From Negativicutes bacterium (GTDB taxonomy: Bacteria > Bacillota > JAAYKD01): a stretch of DNA of 64,000 nt. The notes under the pieces were generated by a model. The model was not told the DNA's origin. It did not search any database and saw nothing but the letters and a program-made list of their open reading frames with translations. Shown piece by piece: positions 2,663 through 31,298 of the stretch. The position numbers and the translations under genes are program-made. Every line of letters starts with the position of its first letter. Position 1 is the first letter of the stretch. The DNA lies in NCBI GenBank assembly GCA_021372785.1, contig JAJFTT010000036.1:28355-92354 (forward strand), written 5' to 3'.

Positions 2663-3189
2663 AGCTGAAGCCGGGTTATTCTTTCCTGTTCGCTCAGTGC
2701 TGTCATCGCTTTTGCTTCCGACCTGATTTCAGCGGGCCATTTTGTCTCCACGGGAGTTTTTCCCTACTCCGTCCGATAAAGCGCAGCAGCACGTCGTTCA
2801 TTTGACAATTTCTCCCGCAAGACCTGCTTCTTCCGGACCAGGGATAGGATCAATTTTTTTGAAAAAAGGCGGAGCTGCAGTGCAAAAGCAGCAGGAGCTG
2901 AAAGCTGACAAGTTGAGCCAGGCAATACCTTTCTTCGCCATCGGTCATTGAGCATGGGTATCTATTGAATAAGTATGACATACTATCTCACAATGTCAAG
3001 CTGCTTTCAAGCAAACTCGGTTCGCTTTCTGACAGACTATCTTTTGTTTCCAAGCATAAATATTTCTTTTGAAAAGACACACTTTTGCCACAATTCTTTG
3101 TTATGATAGGACTGCAGTGAATTCCGGTGTGCATGATAGCGCGCGGAAAATCCAGAAAATCTTCACTGCAAAAAAGGAGGTTTTACAAA

Positions 3190-3806
3190 TGAAAAAAACG
3201 ACCCGGATTTTGCTGGTCATAACGATGATCCTGGCTGTCAGCAGCGGAGCTTTCTTCGTTTTTGCAGCTTCCAGTTACTCCACACCGGCTGAAATCGTTG
3301 CAGGTTTGACCGGACGGAGTTTGGAGAGTGTGATCGCGGAGCATGAGGCAACCGGTGAGAATTACGGTCAGATTGCCGCAGCTGCCGGTCTGCGCGATGA
3401 ATTCATCAGTGAGATGGCTTTGCTTCGCCAAGATAAAATTGCCGCCAAAGTAGCTTCGGGAGAGATTACCCAGGCGCAAGCCGACGAAATCCTCAGCCTG
3501 CTTGCCGCTCGTCGAGTGCTGGGCAATGGTTTGGCTGCCAGAATCAGCCAAAAGTTAGGCTTGGGTCGCGGTATGATGAATGGCTTTGGTCAAAATATCG
3601 AAGTTCTCAAAGAGAAGATCGCTGCAAAAGTAGCCTCCGGCGATTTAACCCAAAACCAGGCTGATCAAATTCTTGCTTTGATTGCAGACCGCCAGGCGAA
3701 TTTCGCAGACGGCAATCCGGGAACAGCGAATCGCTGGCGAATGGGTATGCGAGCCGATTTACGTCAGAAGATCGCCAATTTCCAGAACAACAAAACCAAT
3801 CGTTAA
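3190..3806 (+). CDS. Membrane-anchored repeat protein of unknown function
   Basis: AAGGAGG ribosome-binding site before ATG 3190 and a signal-anchor sequence MKKTTRILLVITMILAVSSGAFFVFA. Two tandem copies of an approximately 33 aa unit (KIAAKVASG[ED][IL]TQ[AN]QAD[EQ]IL[SA]L[LI]A). The longer ORF beginning at 3069 has no ribosome-binding site. Confidence 0.55.
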
Positions 3807-4013: not shown

Positions 4014-4295
4014 TCAGGTTTCCCCTGCCAACAAAACCAGATATCTGGAACGAAACCCCAAATATTCTTTTTGCAGGATCCTACCAGGTATCTCGTTTTC
4101 GGAAAAAACGAGATACCTGGGCGCAGCAGCAAAACTTCCTTGTCTTTGCCGGCGGATTCCTTGCCTAAAATTTGAGCGATTCTCTGCTGACCATAAAAAA
4201 TTCGCCCGGCCCACAAAGTCAGCCACAAATTCATTGATCGGCTGTTGGTAAACAGCAGCAGGAGCAGCCGTTTGCCAAATGCCTTCCCGAACCAT
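4014..4295 (-). pseudogene. Remnant of the C-terminal regulatory domain of a PotA/CysA-type ABC ATPase
   Basis: The translation contains QQPINEFVADFVGRANFL, which matches the P-x-N-x-FVA-x-F-[IV]-G motif found after the nucleotide-binding domain in PotA/CysA/ModC ATPases. There is no upstream Walker A, Walker B or signature motif, and the ORF is only 93 aa. Confidence 0.45.
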
Positions 4296-4360: not shown

Positions 4361-5809
4361 TTAAAGGCTGTCTGGGAAATCATTCCTGAACTGATGCACT
4401 AGATTTTCCTGCCAATCAGAGGTTGCTTGCAAACGGCCAAAGAAGAATCTGAGATTCTTGGGTTCTTCGACAAATTCCAGCCCTCCCACCAGGTGACGAT
4501 TCTGGTGCAGCCAGGCAATGCGATCGATCGCATATTTAATCTGCGATAAGGTAAATACCCGTCTGGGTACGGCTAATCTCAATAATTCCATGGTCGAAAG
4601 TGTTTCGTTCCCTGCCGGGTCACGCTGTTCAGACATCGTGCCGCGTTCCATACCGCGCACTCCGCCGGCCAGATAGAGAGCCGCCGCTAAAGCGCCCGCC
4701 GGATATTCCTGCTGCGGTATCTGATCGACAAAAGCCATGGCATCCAAATGACAGCCCAATCCGCCGGCCGGTGTCACTACCGGCACACCGCGTTTTACCA
4801 ATTCATCTGTCATAAAAGCGATAAATTGCGGACCCTGGCTGATCACGTCTTCTTCCATGGTTTCATCCAAACCCACGGTCAGTGCTTCCATTTCCCGCAC
4901 GGACATACCGCCGTAGGTCAGGAATCCTTCGTATAAAGTAATCAGCTCGCGCATTTTCAAATAGAGCTTTCGATCGTGCATGCAAATACCGCCGCCTTTG
5001 GCAAAACCTAATTTGCGCGCCGAGAAATAGGTAATATCACAAAGTGAAGAAATCGCCAATGTGATTTCCCGGATGCTCATCGATTTGCACTGCTCTTCCC
5101 TTTCTTTCATGAAATGCAGATTATCGGCAAGTAAGCTGGCATCGAGCACCAGGAGAATCTGATGTTTGGCGCAGACTTTATTAACCTCCTGCAGATTGGC
5201 CAGGGAAAACGGCTGACCGCCGATCAGGTTCGTCCCTGCTTCCATGCGGACAAATGCGATTTTCTCACTGCCATGCCGAGCAATGCAATTCTCCAGTTTT
5301 TCGATATCCATGTTGCCTTTGAATAATTCCTGGCTGGTCACCTTGGTACCGCGGTCAGAGAGCAGTTCTTCAACCGAGCCGCCATTCAGCGTAATATGAG
5401 CTTTGGTCGTCGTGAAATGATAGTTCATCGGTGTGATCATACCAGGTTTGACGAAGACTTGCGCCAGGATATTTTCACAGGCCCGGCCCTGATGCGCAGG
5501 CAAGAAAAACTCTGTCCCGAAAATCCGGCGGATTTTTTCTTCCAGGCGCACATATGTTTCACTGCCGGCATAACTGTCGTCAGCCACCATCATGGCGCCT
5601 AATTGACGATCACTCATGGCATTGACACCGCTGTCGGTCAGCATATCCAAGAAGACATCGCGGTTATTCAAAAGGAACGTATTGTTGCCGGCTTTTTTAA
5701 TGCAAAGCAGGCGCTCCTCAATCGGCAGCAACTGCAGTTTCTGTACGATGCGGACCTTATGCATCTCCAAGGGGATTTGTTCTCCACTGAAAAATTGAAT
5801 GTTTGACAT
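4361..5809 (-). CDS. tpl: Beta-eliminating lyase (tryptophanase / tyrosine phenol-lyase family), more Tpl-like
   Basis: 482 aa. NTFLLNNRDVFLDMLTDSGVNAMSDRQLGAMMVADDSYAGSE closely parallels Citrobacter Tpl. The FTTT block is Tpl-like (TnaA has FDTT). A PLP-lysine region is present. The upstream T-box specifier reads UAC (Tyr). Confidence 0.75.
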   Translation of the reverse strand: MSNIQFFSGEQIPLEMHKVRIVQKLQLLPIEERLLCIKKAGNNTFLLNNRDVFLDMLTDSGVNAMSDRQLGAMMVADDSYAGSETYVRLEEKIRRIFGTEFFLPAHQGRACENILAQVFVKPGMITPMNYHFTTTKAHITLNGGSVEELLSDRGTKVTSQELFKGNMDIEKLENCIARHGSEKIAFVRMEAGTNLIGGQPFSLANLQEVNKVCAKHQILLVLDASLLADNLHFMKEREEQCKSMSIREITLAISSLCDITYFSARKLGFAKGGGICMHDRKLYLKMRELITLYEGFLTYGGMSVREMEALTVGLDETMEEDVISQGPQFIAFMTDELVKRGVPVVTPAGGLGCHLDAMAFVDQIPQQEYPAGALAAALYLAGGVRGMERGTMSEQRDPAGNETLSTMELLRLAVPRRVFTLSQIKYAIDRIAWLHQNRHLVGGLEFVEEPKNLRFFFGRLQATSDWQENLVHQFRNDFPDSL

Positions 5810-5905
5810 GAAATTAGCCCTCCTTATTTTTTTGATTGATTCTTACACGGATGAACTTGCAATCATTGTAGCCGGGTTCCATTTCATCATCCCTCTCATC
5901 AGAAA

Positions 5906-6210
5906 TTAAAAAAAACCCGTCCTTTGTGTATCAAACAATACACAAAGGACGGAGAGTTTTCCGTGTTACCACCTTAATTTTTTTGACATTTCACAATGCC
6001 AATCTTATCAAGTATCAGCCGAAAGGCGAATACTCTAGCACGATAACGGATGCAGAGTTCCGGCTTAACCTACTAAGGGCAGCACCCCGTTCAGCAAGCA
6101 GCTCGGAAGATGTATTCGGAATACCATTCCTTGCCCCTCTCACCTGCCGGTAGCTCTCTGTAAGGAATTCTCGTATTCGTACTGGTTCTTCGTCAAAGCC
6201 ATTTACAATT
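5906..6210 (-). promoter_or_regulatory. T-box riboswitch leader, tyrosine (UAC) specifier
   Basis: Read on the minus strand. Stem I carries an AGUA / GAA S-turn with the specifier loop GAA-UAC-A (the codon maps to plus-strand 6112-6114), an AG box AGAGAG and a GNUGA box GGUGA. The T-box sequence AAUUAAGGUGGUAACACGG lies at 5961-5979. A terminator hairpin at 5916-5953 (15 bp stem) is followed by U8 (plus-strand A-run 5906-5915). Confidence 0.75.
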
Positions 6211-6216
6211 TTCATC

Positions 6217-6246
6217 ATAGTAACATTTCGTGAGAGCTTCTGTCAA
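6217..6246 (-). promoter_or_regulatory. Sigma-A type promoter driving the T-box leader and lyase gene
   Basis: On the minus strand: TTGACA, an 18 nt spacer, then TACTAT, placed just upstream of the T-box Stem I. Confidence 0.5.
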
Positions 6247-6428
6247 GCGTTATTTTCTTTCGAATCACTCTTTCGAATCGCTTTCTTGCGGTTTCATCAT
6301 ACCGGAGTATCCCGTCTACCTTAGCGCAGGGAAATGATACGCATTGACCGCAATCATGCTTCGCCCAGAAGCTGGAGGCGGTACTGCTTCATTAAATATC
6401 GGAGCAGACATCATCAGAATTACACGAA

Positions 6429-7079
6429 CTATTCGTTATTCCGATGATCTCCGGTGATCGCGAATTCTACCCATTCGGCAATATTAACCGAATGATCACC
6501 GATCCGTTCAAAATACTTGGCGATCATCAGCAAATCGAGGGCTTGCCCTCCCTTTTCGGGTGCAATTGTGATGATACCAATCAGCTCTCTCTTGATGGTA
6601 TCGAATAACTCGTCCACGATATCATCCATTTGCATGACTTCCAGTGCAAGCGCCAAATCTCTTTTGACAAACGCATCAATGCTTTTATTCACCATTTTTA
6701 TGGTTTCCGCAGCCATCATCGGTAAATGCTCGATTTTTTTGATATAGGGCTCATCCGCCAGGTAAACAATGATTTCGGAGATATCCCTGGCTTGGTCGCC
6801 GATTCGTTCCATGTCGGTTATCATTTTTAAGGCGGCTGAAATAAAGCGCAGATCTCTGGCTACCGGTTGTTGCTGTAATAAGAGTTTCAGACAAAGATTC
6901 TCAATATGGCGCTCCTTTTCATTGATTTCCACTTCGAAAGAAATTGCCTTGTTCGCTTCCTCAACATTCTTCTGCAGCAACGCGATCGATGTGGTTTGAA
7001 TTGCATTTTCAATCAGTAATCCCATTTCAATCAGCTCGGTATTCAATAGATCCAATTGTTCGTCAAATTTTGTTCGCAT
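6429..7079 (-). CDS. phoU: Phosphate signalling complex protein PhoU
   Basis: 216 aa, two PhoU repeats, MRTKFDEQLDLL start, and position at the end of the pst operon. Confidence 0.9.
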   Translation of the reverse strand: MRTKFDEQLDLLNTELIEMGLLIENAIQTTSIALLQKNVEEANKAISFEVEINEKERHIENLCLKLLLQQQPVARDLRFISAALKMITDMERIGDQARDISEIIVYLADEPYIKKIEHLPMMAAETIKMVNKSIDAFVKRDLALALEVMQMDDIVDELFDTIKRELIGIITIAPEKGGQALDLLMIAKYFERIGDHSVNIAEWVEFAITGDHRNNE

Positions 7080-7157: not shown

Positions 7158-7919
7158 TTAGCCAAATCTTCCGGTAATATAATCACTTGTGCGCTGATCT
7201 TTCGGATTGGCAAAAACTTCTTCGGTCTGGCCGTGTTCAATCAGGTTTCCCATCAGCATGAAGGCGACCCTGTCCGCAATGCGTGCTGCCTGCTGAACGG
7301 TATGAGGCGCAATGATAATGGTATAGTGCTCTTTCAGCTGTCTTAAAGAGTCCTCGATTTTTGAGGTTGAGACCGGATCCAGGGCAGAACAAGGTCTGTC
7401 CAGCAAGATGATCTCCGGTTCCAGCGCCAGGACACGAGCAATACAGAGACGCTGCTGTTGCCCGCCGGATAACCTGGTTGCCGGTGTATGCAGCCGATCC
7501 TTTACTTCATCCCAGAGCGCCGCCAGACGAAGCGACTTTTCCGCTTTCTCAGCCAAAATCGTGTTGCTCTTCAGTCCGAGCATCCGCGGACCCAGGACGA
7601 TATTGTCAAAGACGGACATCGGAAGCGGCGTAGGTACATCGAAGACCATGCCCACTTTACGCCGTAATTCGGTAACATTGATCTCGGGAGAGAAAATACT
7701 GTTGCCATCAATCAGAATTTCACCTGTCCTGTGCGCATTGAGGTTCAAATCGCTGAGCCGATTGAGTGTACGGAGCAGTGTCGTAATGCCGCTGTTTGCC
7801 GGCCCAAAAACTGCCAGAATTTCATTTGCCGGGATCTCCAAACTGAAATTGCGGATCGCCTGATTTGTCTGATAATAGAAATTTAAATCCTTAATTGCTA
7901 TTTTGGCCTGTTGACTCAT
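7158..7919 (-). CDS. pstB: Phosphate ABC transporter ATP-binding protein
   Basis: 253 aa with [33 protein letters not shown] and IILLDRPCSALD motifs, immediately downstream of pstA. Confidence 0.9.
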   Translation of the reverse strand: MSQQAKIAIKDLNFYYQTNQAIRNFSLEIPANEILAVFGPANSGITTLLRTLNRLSDLNLNAHRTGEILIDGNSIFSPEINVTELRRKVGMVFDVPTPLPMSVFDNIVLGPRMLGLKSNTILAEKAEKSLRLAALWDEVKDRLHTPATRLSGGQQQRLCIARVLALEPEIILLDRPCSALDPVSTSKIEDSLRQLKEHYTIIIAPHTVQQAARIADRVAFMLMGNLIEHGQTEEVFANPKDQRTSDYITGRFG

Positions 7920-24926: not shown

Positions 24927-25002
24927 TGGTGGAGACGAAGAGGATCGAACTCTCGACCTTACGGATGCGAACCGTACGCTCTCCCAGCTGAGCTACGTCC
25001 CC
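24927..25002 (-). tRNA. tRNA-Ala (anticodon CGC)
   Basis: The reverse complement GGGGACGTAGCTCAGCTGGGAGAGCGTACGGTTCGCATCCGTAAGGTCGAGAGTTCGATCCTCTTCGTCTCCACCA folds as a cloverleaf. It has a G3:U70 pair, anticodon loop TTCGCAT, T-loop TTCGATC and an encoded CCA. Confidence 0.85.
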
Positions 25003-31221: not shown

Positions 31222-31298
31222 TGGTCGGGCTGCCGCGATTCGAACGCGGGGCCTCTTGAACCCCATTCAAGCGCGCTACCAAACTGCGCTACAGCCCG
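31222..31298 (-). tRNA. tRNA-Pro (anticodon GGG)
   Basis: The reverse complement CGGGCTGTAGCGCAGTTTGGTAGCGCGCTTGAATGGGGTTCAAGAGGCCCCGCGTTCGAATCGCGGCAGCCCGACCA folds as a cloverleaf. Anticodon loop ATGGGGT (G37), T-loop TTCGAAT. Confidence 0.85.

Follow-up and report, generated by a model that had tools for sequence, protein, structure and literature searches.

Why would a bacterium place a nominally degradative enzyme under a switch that responds to the shortage of an amino acid? The question is raised by a 64,000-nucleotide stretch of DNA, hereafter the window, from a Negativicutes bacterium (GenBank assembly GCA_021372785.1, contig JAJFTT010000036.1, positions 28,355 to 92,354 of the forward strand), in which a T-box riboswitch with a tyrosine specifier lies on the minus strand directly upstream of a gene for a 482-residue beta-eliminating lyase related to tyrosine phenol-lyase (Tpl) and tryptophanase (TnaA). 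The pairing recurs in other genomes, and the answer considered here is that the enzyme may make tyrosine rather than destroy it.

The leader of the lyase gene

The whole window was scanned with Rfam at gathering thresholds and yielded a single T-box, RF00230 at 5942-6205 of the minus strand, which scores 99.8 bits against a gathering score of 93 (E = 8.6e-21) and covers model positions 1-219 of 219 without truncation. The parts of the leader, placed by sequence reading and by alignment to the Rfam covariance model (CM), and the gene that follows them are listed here in the direction of transcription.

6217..6246, minus strand: sigma-70-type promoter, TTGACA-18-TACTAT with a TG extended -10 (10/12 consensus matches)
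5942..6205, minus strand: T-box leader with Stem I, Stem II including IIA/B and the F-box, Stem III and antiterminator (RF00230)
6101..6199, minus strand: Stem I with a GA/K-turn base (sequence reading and CM alignment)
6183-6180, minus strand: AGUA of the specifier loop S-turn (read against the CM alignment)
6159-6154, minus strand: AG bulge, AGAGAG (read against the CM alignment)
6144-6140, minus strand: distal loop, GGUGA (read against the CM alignment)
6117-6115, minus strand: GAA of the specifier loop (read against the CM alignment)
6112..6114, minus strand: specifier codon UAC (Tyr), in the CM codon columns, with the conserved purine A next to it at 6111
6049-6044, minus strand: F-box, CCGUUA
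5961..5979, minus strand: T-box sequence AAUUAAGGUGGUAACACGG, with its UGGU bulge at 5971-5968
5953-5916, minus strand: intrinsic terminator with a 17-bp stem and a 4-nt loop, followed by a U8 tract at 5915-5908
5818..5825, minus strand: ribosome-binding site AAGGAGGG, 8 nt before the ATG at 5809 (read directly)
4361..5809, minus strand: 482-residue beta-eliminating lyase dependent on pyridoxal 5'-phosphate (PLP), assigned below to a third subfamily; the PLP lysine is Lys266

A first-pass annotation, made from the letters of the sequence, had described a promoter, a Stem I with AGUA/GAA, AGAGAG and GGUGA motifs, a T-box sequence and a terminator with a U8 tract upstream of a lyase of 482 residues carrying an FTTT block and NAMSDRQ. 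Each of these was located: the promoter on the minus strand at 6246-6217, the Stem I motifs within the RF00230 match, the T-box sequence at 5979-5961, and HFTTT and NAMSDRQ within the PF01212-positive open reading frame (ORF) at 5809-4361. One detail changes, as the terminator stem counted there as 15 bp has 17 bp by the tools used here. The promoter is a consensus match only, in a region where promoter-like sites are not enriched over shuffles, and the call draws its support from the position of the site just upstream of the T-box start. The tyrosine specifier given in the first-pass annotation agrees with the Rfam alignment, in which U-A-C fills the three codon columns of the model, followed by the conserved purine, and no other codon occupies the position.

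The segment UCCGUCCUU forms the 5' arm of the terminator and doubles as the 3' strand of the antiterminator, so that the two structures are mutually exclusive. The default fold of the 3' domain is the terminator (−31.2 kcal/mol; z = −6.25 relative to 200 shuffles), and the Shine-Dalgarno sequence and start codon come approximately 100 nt past it. The leader is a canonical transcription-attenuating T-box riboswitch lying between its own promoter and the lyase gene; that it is functional is, on these features, close to certain, and its specificity for tyrosine is highly probable. By the established T-box mechanism, the anticodon of uncharged tRNA-Tyr would pair with UAC while its free ACCA-3' end would pair with the UGGU bulge, the U of which fits an A73 discriminator. 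Binding would stabilise the antiterminator, and the lyase would be transcribed only when tyrosyl-tRNA charging falls; charged tRNA-Tyr could not bind in this way and the terminator would form. We infer this switching behaviour from the membership of the leader in the T-box family.

A third subfamily of the Tpl/TnaA family

The lyase scores above the cutoff of the Pfam family PF01212 (Beta_elim_lyase; 168.9 bits, cutoff 27) and passes the PRK13238/NF009709 subfamily model, which bears the name 'tryptophanase', with 588 bits (cutoff 285). It falls below the cutoffs of the Tpl equivalog TIGR02618 (431.6 bits against 720.7), the TnaA equivalog TIGR02617 (340.8 bits against 825.8) and the tryptophanase equivalog NF053783 (370.7 against 750). 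A search of the PDB returned Tpl as the best solved structures (372-384 bits), with TnaA at 312 bits or lower, and it is not in doubt that the lyase has the same fold as solved Tpl (E 1e-110).

To place the enzyme among its relatives, the proteins encoded at 80 fetched genomic loci were joined with the window protein to give a clade of 81 members, which was aligned with Citrobacter freundii Tpl and Escherichia coli TnaA. Identity of the window protein is 39% with Tpl and 36% with TnaA, which share 43% with each other; inside the clade it is at least 63.5% across phyla. Thr133, Arg389 and Phe455 of the window lyase correspond to the specificity residues Thr124, Arg381 and Phe448 of Tpl and are of this type in all 81 members; at the discriminating positions E. 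coli TnaA has Asp137, Val394, Ile396 and His463. The catalytic Tyr71, Lys257 and Arg404 of Tpl are represented by Tyr80, Lys266 and Arg411, likewise invariant (81/81). Every clade member keeps the Tpl-type pocket made up of Tyr71, Phe123, Thr124, Met379, Arg381, Arg404, Phe448 and Phe449, and Phe36 is kept in 80 of the 81, with one Tyr. Alongside this conserved pocket stand replacements that run through the whole clade: Arg217Leu (Leu226 in the window lyase; Tpl Arg217, TnaA Arg230), Lys256Arg (Arg265; Tpl Lys256, TnaA Lys269) and Phe in place of Tpl Met288, each in 81/81. Arg217 and Lys256 are residues that we take to contact PLP. The proteins also share a conserved C-terminal extension of approximately 22 residues (W466, Q467 ... 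D477, F478, x, D480, S481, L482).

The isolation of the clade is apparent in a protein library clustered at 50% identity, where it is represented by one full-length sequence (61% identity) and the next full-length relatives lie at 47% or lower, most of them at 42% or lower. In the same library Arg217 together with Lys256 is near-universal among TnaA-type and Tpl-type representatives, and Leu or Met at 217 with Arg at 256 is confined to the clade lineage and its nearest relatives. The Tpl-type representatives identified are from actinobacteria, the candidate phyla radiation or Vibrio. The closest outgroup, the P0128 cluster, is from Crenarchaeota (Desulfurococcales, Acidilobaceae); it shows 45% identity, has Met217, Arg256 and a Tpl-type pocket, and is also annotated as tryptophanase. 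Several clusters (P0122, P0124-P0127, P0130, P0133, P0134 and others) consist of tandem double Beta_elim_lyase proteins of approximately 850-930 residues, in which each domain matches the full query.

On these comparisons the lyase is a member of a discrete, highly conserved and uncharacterised third subfamily of the Tpl/TnaA family. The initial description of it as more Tpl-like than TnaA-like stands insofar as the scores favour Tpl, but it is not a strict Tpl orthologue. NCBI annotates the window lyase and most of the clade members seen as tryptophanase and the canonical relatives as tyrosine phenol-lyase; judged by the pocket residues, the name given to the clade is probably a misnomer. For the 'tnaA' genes of Rhodobacter capsulatus and Rhodopseudomonas palustris, the indole phenotype is given as 'n/a' (PMC8537960).

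Recurrence of the T-box-lyase pair

Among Firmicutes the clade is found in Tissierella, Sporanaerobacter, many Clostridia, Bacillus, Lysinibacillus and others, and beyond them it occurs in purple and aromatic-degrading Proteobacteria, Fusobacteria, Fibrobacter, Chitinispirillales and Verrucomicrobia. Such loci include those of R. capsulatus (L066), R. palustris BisB18 (L070), Thauera (L020), a member of the Fusobacteria (L053) and Fibrobacter (L072). The proteobacterial members come from Alpha-, Beta- and Gammaproteobacteria. Throughout the clade the proteins are always of approximately 482 residues, and their genes lie in unrelated contexts. Identity of at least 63.5% across such distances points to constraint of unusual strength, to frequent horizontal transfer or to the two together.

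A full-length RF00230 T-box was detected by Rfam directly upstream of the lyase in 17 of the 40 Firmicute-type loci, with scores of 94-154 bits. Three cultured isolates were checked separately, and all three carry the T-box: Sporanaerobacter acetigenes, Tissierella carlieri and T. creatinini (123, 105.6 and 127.2 bits, respectively). The assemblies of these isolates are GCA_004349435.1, GCA_024461695.1 and GCA_005046945.1, in the same order. The window, the 17 loci and the three isolates make 21 Firmicute loci with the T-box-lyase pair, 20 of them additional to the window, and UAC followed by A is invariant throughout. Sporanaerobacter NZ_CP181252.1 is among the genomes that have the pair. In the set of 18 leaders formed by the window and the 17 Rfam-positive loci, AA-UAC-A is invariant in the Stem I regions (18/18), where overall column identity is 64%; the three isolates all read GAA-UAC-A. 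The UGGU bulge, compatible with an A73 discriminator, is present in 18/18 leaders, and an overlapping terminator of −11 to −44 kcal/mol in 17/18, the remaining one, L005, having been only partly checked. RNAalifold, run on a MAFFT alignment of Stem I that is not structure-aware, recovered the distal helix alone, with compensatory changes in three of its four predicted pairs, and the rest of the structure is taken from the Rfam CM. No further T-box was found in any locus by a core-motif regular expression or by an nhmmer profile built from the 18 leaders.

In a neighbour-joining tree, 12 of the T-box-bearing proteins group together and the remainder are spread over three or more other branches; in all, T-box-bearing members occupy at least 4-5 branches. 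Judged by this distribution and by the constancy of the specifier, the T-box-lyase pairing recurs under selection and is no accident of a single genome. The T-box is also the main contextual clue to the role of the enzyme, because no neighbouring gene is conserved: all-against-all clustering of ORFs across the 81 loci gave no recurrent neighbour, and a Pfam scan found no family in more than 4 of 132 immediate neighbours. Apparent clusters of conserved neighbours were rejected as shadow ORFs inside the lyase gene. Two other riboswitches, with no visible relation to the lyase, were seen at these loci, a NiCo riboswitch just downstream of the gene in L003 (4634-4740, plus strand) and a cobalamin riboswitch upstream on the opposite strand in L053 (2274-2439, minus strand).

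A second leader type on copies without a T-box

One subclade of eight Firmicute loci without a T-box (L015, L017, L018, L022, L023, L027, L046 and L063) has a long gap upstream of the gene that contains another conserved leader, located approximately 60-370 nt before the lyase start (for example L046:2737-2753 and L017 at approximately 2718-2766). A search of these loci with Rfam at E ≤ 1 returned nothing relevant and no match to the leader itself. Its parts are, in order, a promoter, directly followed by 8-nt periodic (C/U)AUGG-UAK units, a weaker UGG-periodic run, an intrinsic terminator and a ribosome-binding site. The repeat box has three to six units, as in UAG-CAUGG-UAG-UAUGG-UAG, with six in L017. 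In several of the loci this box is complementary to the terminator's 5' arm (GGUAUU/AAUACC in L046 and L015, UAGAAU/AUUCUA in L017), and it is also complementary to a 3' segment next to the ribosome-binding site. A Tyr-rich leader peptide, MQYYLQYYLQYKISI, was considered in L023 and rejected, being a mini-ORF that arises from a lineage-specific tandem insertion absent from relatives. The insertion is a tandem repeat of TTTGCAATAyTA at approximately L023:2810-2860 inside the second leader, and the peptide that it creates is probably fortuitous.

A metagenome scan with GCATGGTANTANGGTAG for the regulon of the second leader gave mostly chance matches and satellites, with approximately seven distinct loci showing extended context. 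The architecture occurs upstream of TrpX-family substrate-binding proteins (L135, L186, L154, L119 and L109), which match PF04392 at 6e-94 and score 304 bits against NF041285, below its cutoff of 390, and a four-unit box lies upstream of hisZ in L147 (identical to L094). In the metagenome contigs L172, L158 and L138 the 8-bp unit GCATGGTA is repeated in long tandem arrays, which are probably satellites unrelated to the leader. The lyase is thereby seen, as far as leader architecture goes, to share its leader type with genes of amino-acid uptake and biosynthesis. The leader has similarities with the triplet-repeat sites that TRAP or HutP recognise in RNA and, as another option, with TrpR-family operators, whose period is likewise 8 bp; it is a candidate for either a protein-mediated attenuator site (TRAP- or HutP-like) or a TrpR-type tandem operator.

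A proposed tyrosine-supplying role and its alternatives

Since a lack of tyrosine appears to turn the gene on, its product most likely serves tyrosine supply. The enzyme would condense environmental phenol with pyruvate and ammonia, the reverse of its nominal reaction, or alternatively form tyrosine from phenol and serine through beta-replacement. Both routes belong to the chemistry of Tpl. This is reversible, the kcat for making tyrosine out of phenol, pyruvate and ammonia being higher than that for elimination by a factor of 1.5, and it includes the conversion of serine and phenol to tyrosine. The canonical tpl genes of Erwinia and Citrobacter are induced by L-tyrosine via TyrR and are catabolite-repressed, so that their regulation has the opposite sign (PMC10170061). 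For the recruitment of an enzyme to tyrosine supply by a T-box there is a precedent in the Bacillus cereus group, where phenylalanine-4-hydroxylase, which converts Phe to Tyr, is T-box-regulated (PMC2494555).

The composition of the proteins points in the same direction. Mean Tyr content is 2.5% in T-box-linked lyases, 3.1% in other clade members, 4.9% in Tpl and 5.3% in TnaA. Among low-GC loci, T-box-linked lyases have 2.55% Tyr against 3.18% (one-sided Mann-Whitney p = 1.6e-4, a value inflated by shared ancestry); the GC-adjusted effect of T-box linkage is −0.64 ± 0.13 percentage points, and Tyr is recurrently replaced by Phe at five sites. Such depletion would be expected if the proteins are made while the cell is starved for the amino acid in question. 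The reverse-reaction or scavenging role that the first-pass annotation had suggested is strengthened by T-box conservation, by Tyr depletion, by the second leader and by the opposite regulation of canonical tpl. We regard the proposal that the lyase is a tyrosine-supplying phenol-salvage enzyme as the best reading of the sequence evidence, at about even odds. More tentative, and somewhat short of an even balance, is the broader model whereby the clade would be a dedicated tyrosine synthase, starvation-induced through at least two unrelated leaders (a Tyr T-box plus a UGGUAG-repeat attenuator) and widespread in anaerobic Firmicutes.

Several observations weigh against a tyrosine-supplying role. 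The T-box is missing from more than half of the Firmicute loci and from every proteobacterial one, and the T-box-less members, above all those of aromatic-degrading or phototrophic Proteobacteria, may well be catabolic. No conserved neighbour speaks for phenol, serine or tyrosine metabolism, and contexts differ between loci. The statistic for Tyr depletion counts 12 T-box members that form one subclade. Finally, the Km values of canonical Tpl for synthesis are high (pyruvate 12 mM, NH3 20 mM, phenol 1.1 mM), and millimolar values of this kind are demanding in vivo.

The alternative that survives best, itself improbable, is that the enzyme is an ordinary catabolic tyrosine phenol-lyase whose association with a T-box has no supply logic, the switch having been recruited to signal starvation, for example for the scavenging of nitrogen or carbon or for the release of phenol as a signal, in analogy to the starvation-linked formation of indole by TnaA. 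The nominal role of the family is degradation, the residues required for elimination (Tyr71, Lys257 and Arg404) are intact, and the clade also occurs without the T-box in many Firmicutes and in Proteobacteria that include the aromatic degraders Thauera and Rhodopseudomonas. However, degrading tyrosine while tRNA-Tyr is uncharged would worsen the shortage at a time when the substrate is scarce, and known catabolic tpl genes respond to the presence of tyrosine, not to its lack. Selection has kept the link with the leader in 21 loci spread over several branches, the specifier being Tyr in every one, and it is the T-box-linked copies that are depleted in Tyr.

Slightly less probable again is a role in removing tyrosine analogues or competitors (m-tyrosine, halogenated or nitrated tyrosine, DOPA) that inhibit tyrosyl-tRNA synthetase or are mischarged, in which case an analogue-caused fall in tRNA-Tyr charging would induce its own detoxification. 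A T-box senses charging rather than tyrosine, so that any inhibitor of the synthetase would induce the gene; Tpl accepts many ring-substituted phenols and tyrosines (PMC10170061), and the differences of the clade pocket at 288 (Met to Phe), 217 and 256 could shift substrate preference. Against this, Thr124, Arg381 and Phe448, which suit an unsubstituted 4-hydroxyphenyl ring, are invariant in 81/81, a T-box-controlled detoxification enzyme is without precedent in the searchable T-box literature, and the Tyr depletion of the protein fits a real tyrosine shortage better.

Very unlikely is a specifier in a different frame, either AUA (Ile) or ACA (Thr), or a response to more than one tRNA, so that the switch would not be tyrosine-specific: the invariant block AAUACA does make the −1 (AUA) and +1 (ACA) frames equally invariant, and alternative frames are considered by TBDB for some T-boxes (PMC7778990), but the CM alignment has UAC in the codon columns, the canonical rule is codon, last loop purine and then stem, L038, L040 and L041 read UAC-A-CCC with CCC pairing to a 5' GGG, UAC is the classic tyrS specifier, and the regulated enzyme has a tyrosine-type pocket.

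Genes around the lyase in the window

The following features lie on either side of the lyase gene and its leader.

7158-7919, minus strand: pstB, upstream of the T-box (NCBIfam)
6429-7079, minus strand: phoU, upstream of the T-box (NCBIfam)
4014-4295, minus strand: 93-residue ORF, fragment of an ATP-binding cassette (ABC) ATPase, just downstream of the lyase stop (4361)
3069-3806, plus strand: convergent ORF with no assigned function
893-2662: MsbA-like ABC exporter

To judge by their positions, phoU and pstB are the end of a pst operon. The stretch from phoU to the T-box promoter showed no terminator; read-through from the phoU side would still meet the one in the T-box leader. The 93-residue ORF resembles only an internal stretch of approximately 40 residues of PotA/PhnT-type ABC ATPases (E 3e-8) and is probably a pseudogene remnant. 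Since only this fragment and then the convergent ORF follow downstream, the lyase gene is likely to be monocistronic. There is no tRNA-Tyr gene in the 64-kb window, and tRNA-Ala(CGC) and tRNA-Pro(GGG) were found at 24927-25002 and 31222-31298, both on the minus strand.

Relation to known systems and implications

As an RNA the leader is an ordinary member of the T-box family, and it is the target that is unusual. It shares with class I Tyr T-boxes such as that of Bacillus subtilis tyrS the RF00230 architecture, the UAC codon followed by a purine, the UGGU bulge and the mutually exclusive antiterminator and terminator, and it would follow the same logic, being ON when tRNA-Tyr is uncharged. It differs in the regulated gene, which here encodes a beta-eliminating lyase of the Tpl/TnaA family, whereas the Tyr T-boxes of Firmicutes have been described on genes for tyrS, an NhaC-type transporter and phenylalanine-4-hydroxylase (PMC2494555). 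The last of these is a case of a nominally catabolic enzyme recruited to supply Tyr. The T-box surveys of Wels 2008 and the TBDB paper make no mention of a lyase or tryptophanase, and no literature linking a T-box or riboswitch with Tpl or tryptophanase was found, an earlier table entry (Vitreschak 2008, RegPrecise, TBDB) being possible. The switch and the superfamily are known; their pairing is conserved and, as far as could be found, previously undescribed.

With Tpl (EC 4.1.99.2; C. freundii, Erwinia herbicola) the lyase shares the fold, the PLP lysine and the phenol-pocket residues, but at 39% identity it is set apart by the invariant Arg217Leu, Lys256Arg and Met288Phe replacements of its clade and by the C-terminal extension. 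The control also differs, canonical tpl being induced by tyrosine via TyrR and CRP and the clade gene, as predicted from its leader, by tyrosine shortage. TnaA (EC 4.1.99.1) belongs to the same family and has Phe304 where the clade has Phe at the Tpl-288 position; unlike TnaA, the window lyase has Thr, Arg and Phe in place of Asp137, Ile396 and His463 and is accompanied by neither a tnaC leader nor a tnaB partner.

A functional parallel may be drawn with stand-alone TrpB, which salvages indole under Trp-starvation control. Like the role proposed here, this brings together a PLP enzyme, an environmental ring with a three-carbon skeleton and expression on starvation; fold type and chemistry differ, and the analogy with phenol salvage is a proposal. 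We know of no physiological phenol-salvage enzyme for tyrosine. Experimental testing is possible because three cultured strains carry the T-box-lyase pair.

T-boxes report the response of the cell to the shortage of a specific amino acid. Where one for Tyr is conserved ahead of a lyase whose nominal function is degradation, it points directly, and in a way open to testing, to an enzyme that supplies tyrosine. If this role is borne out, the annotation of thousands of proteins now named tryptophanase would be corrected, and counts of Tpl/TnaA-family genes would be read differently in microbiome studies of phenol and indole as uraemic toxins. Biocatalysis would gain a naturally synthesis-oriented Tpl scaffold with an Arg217Leu/Lys256Arg active site. 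For the organisms themselves, phenol salvage would be a new, previously unrecognised bacterial route of tyrosine acquisition, and would account for the ability of some amino-acid-fermenting anaerobes to cope in phenol- and ammonia-rich habitats such as digesters and guts.

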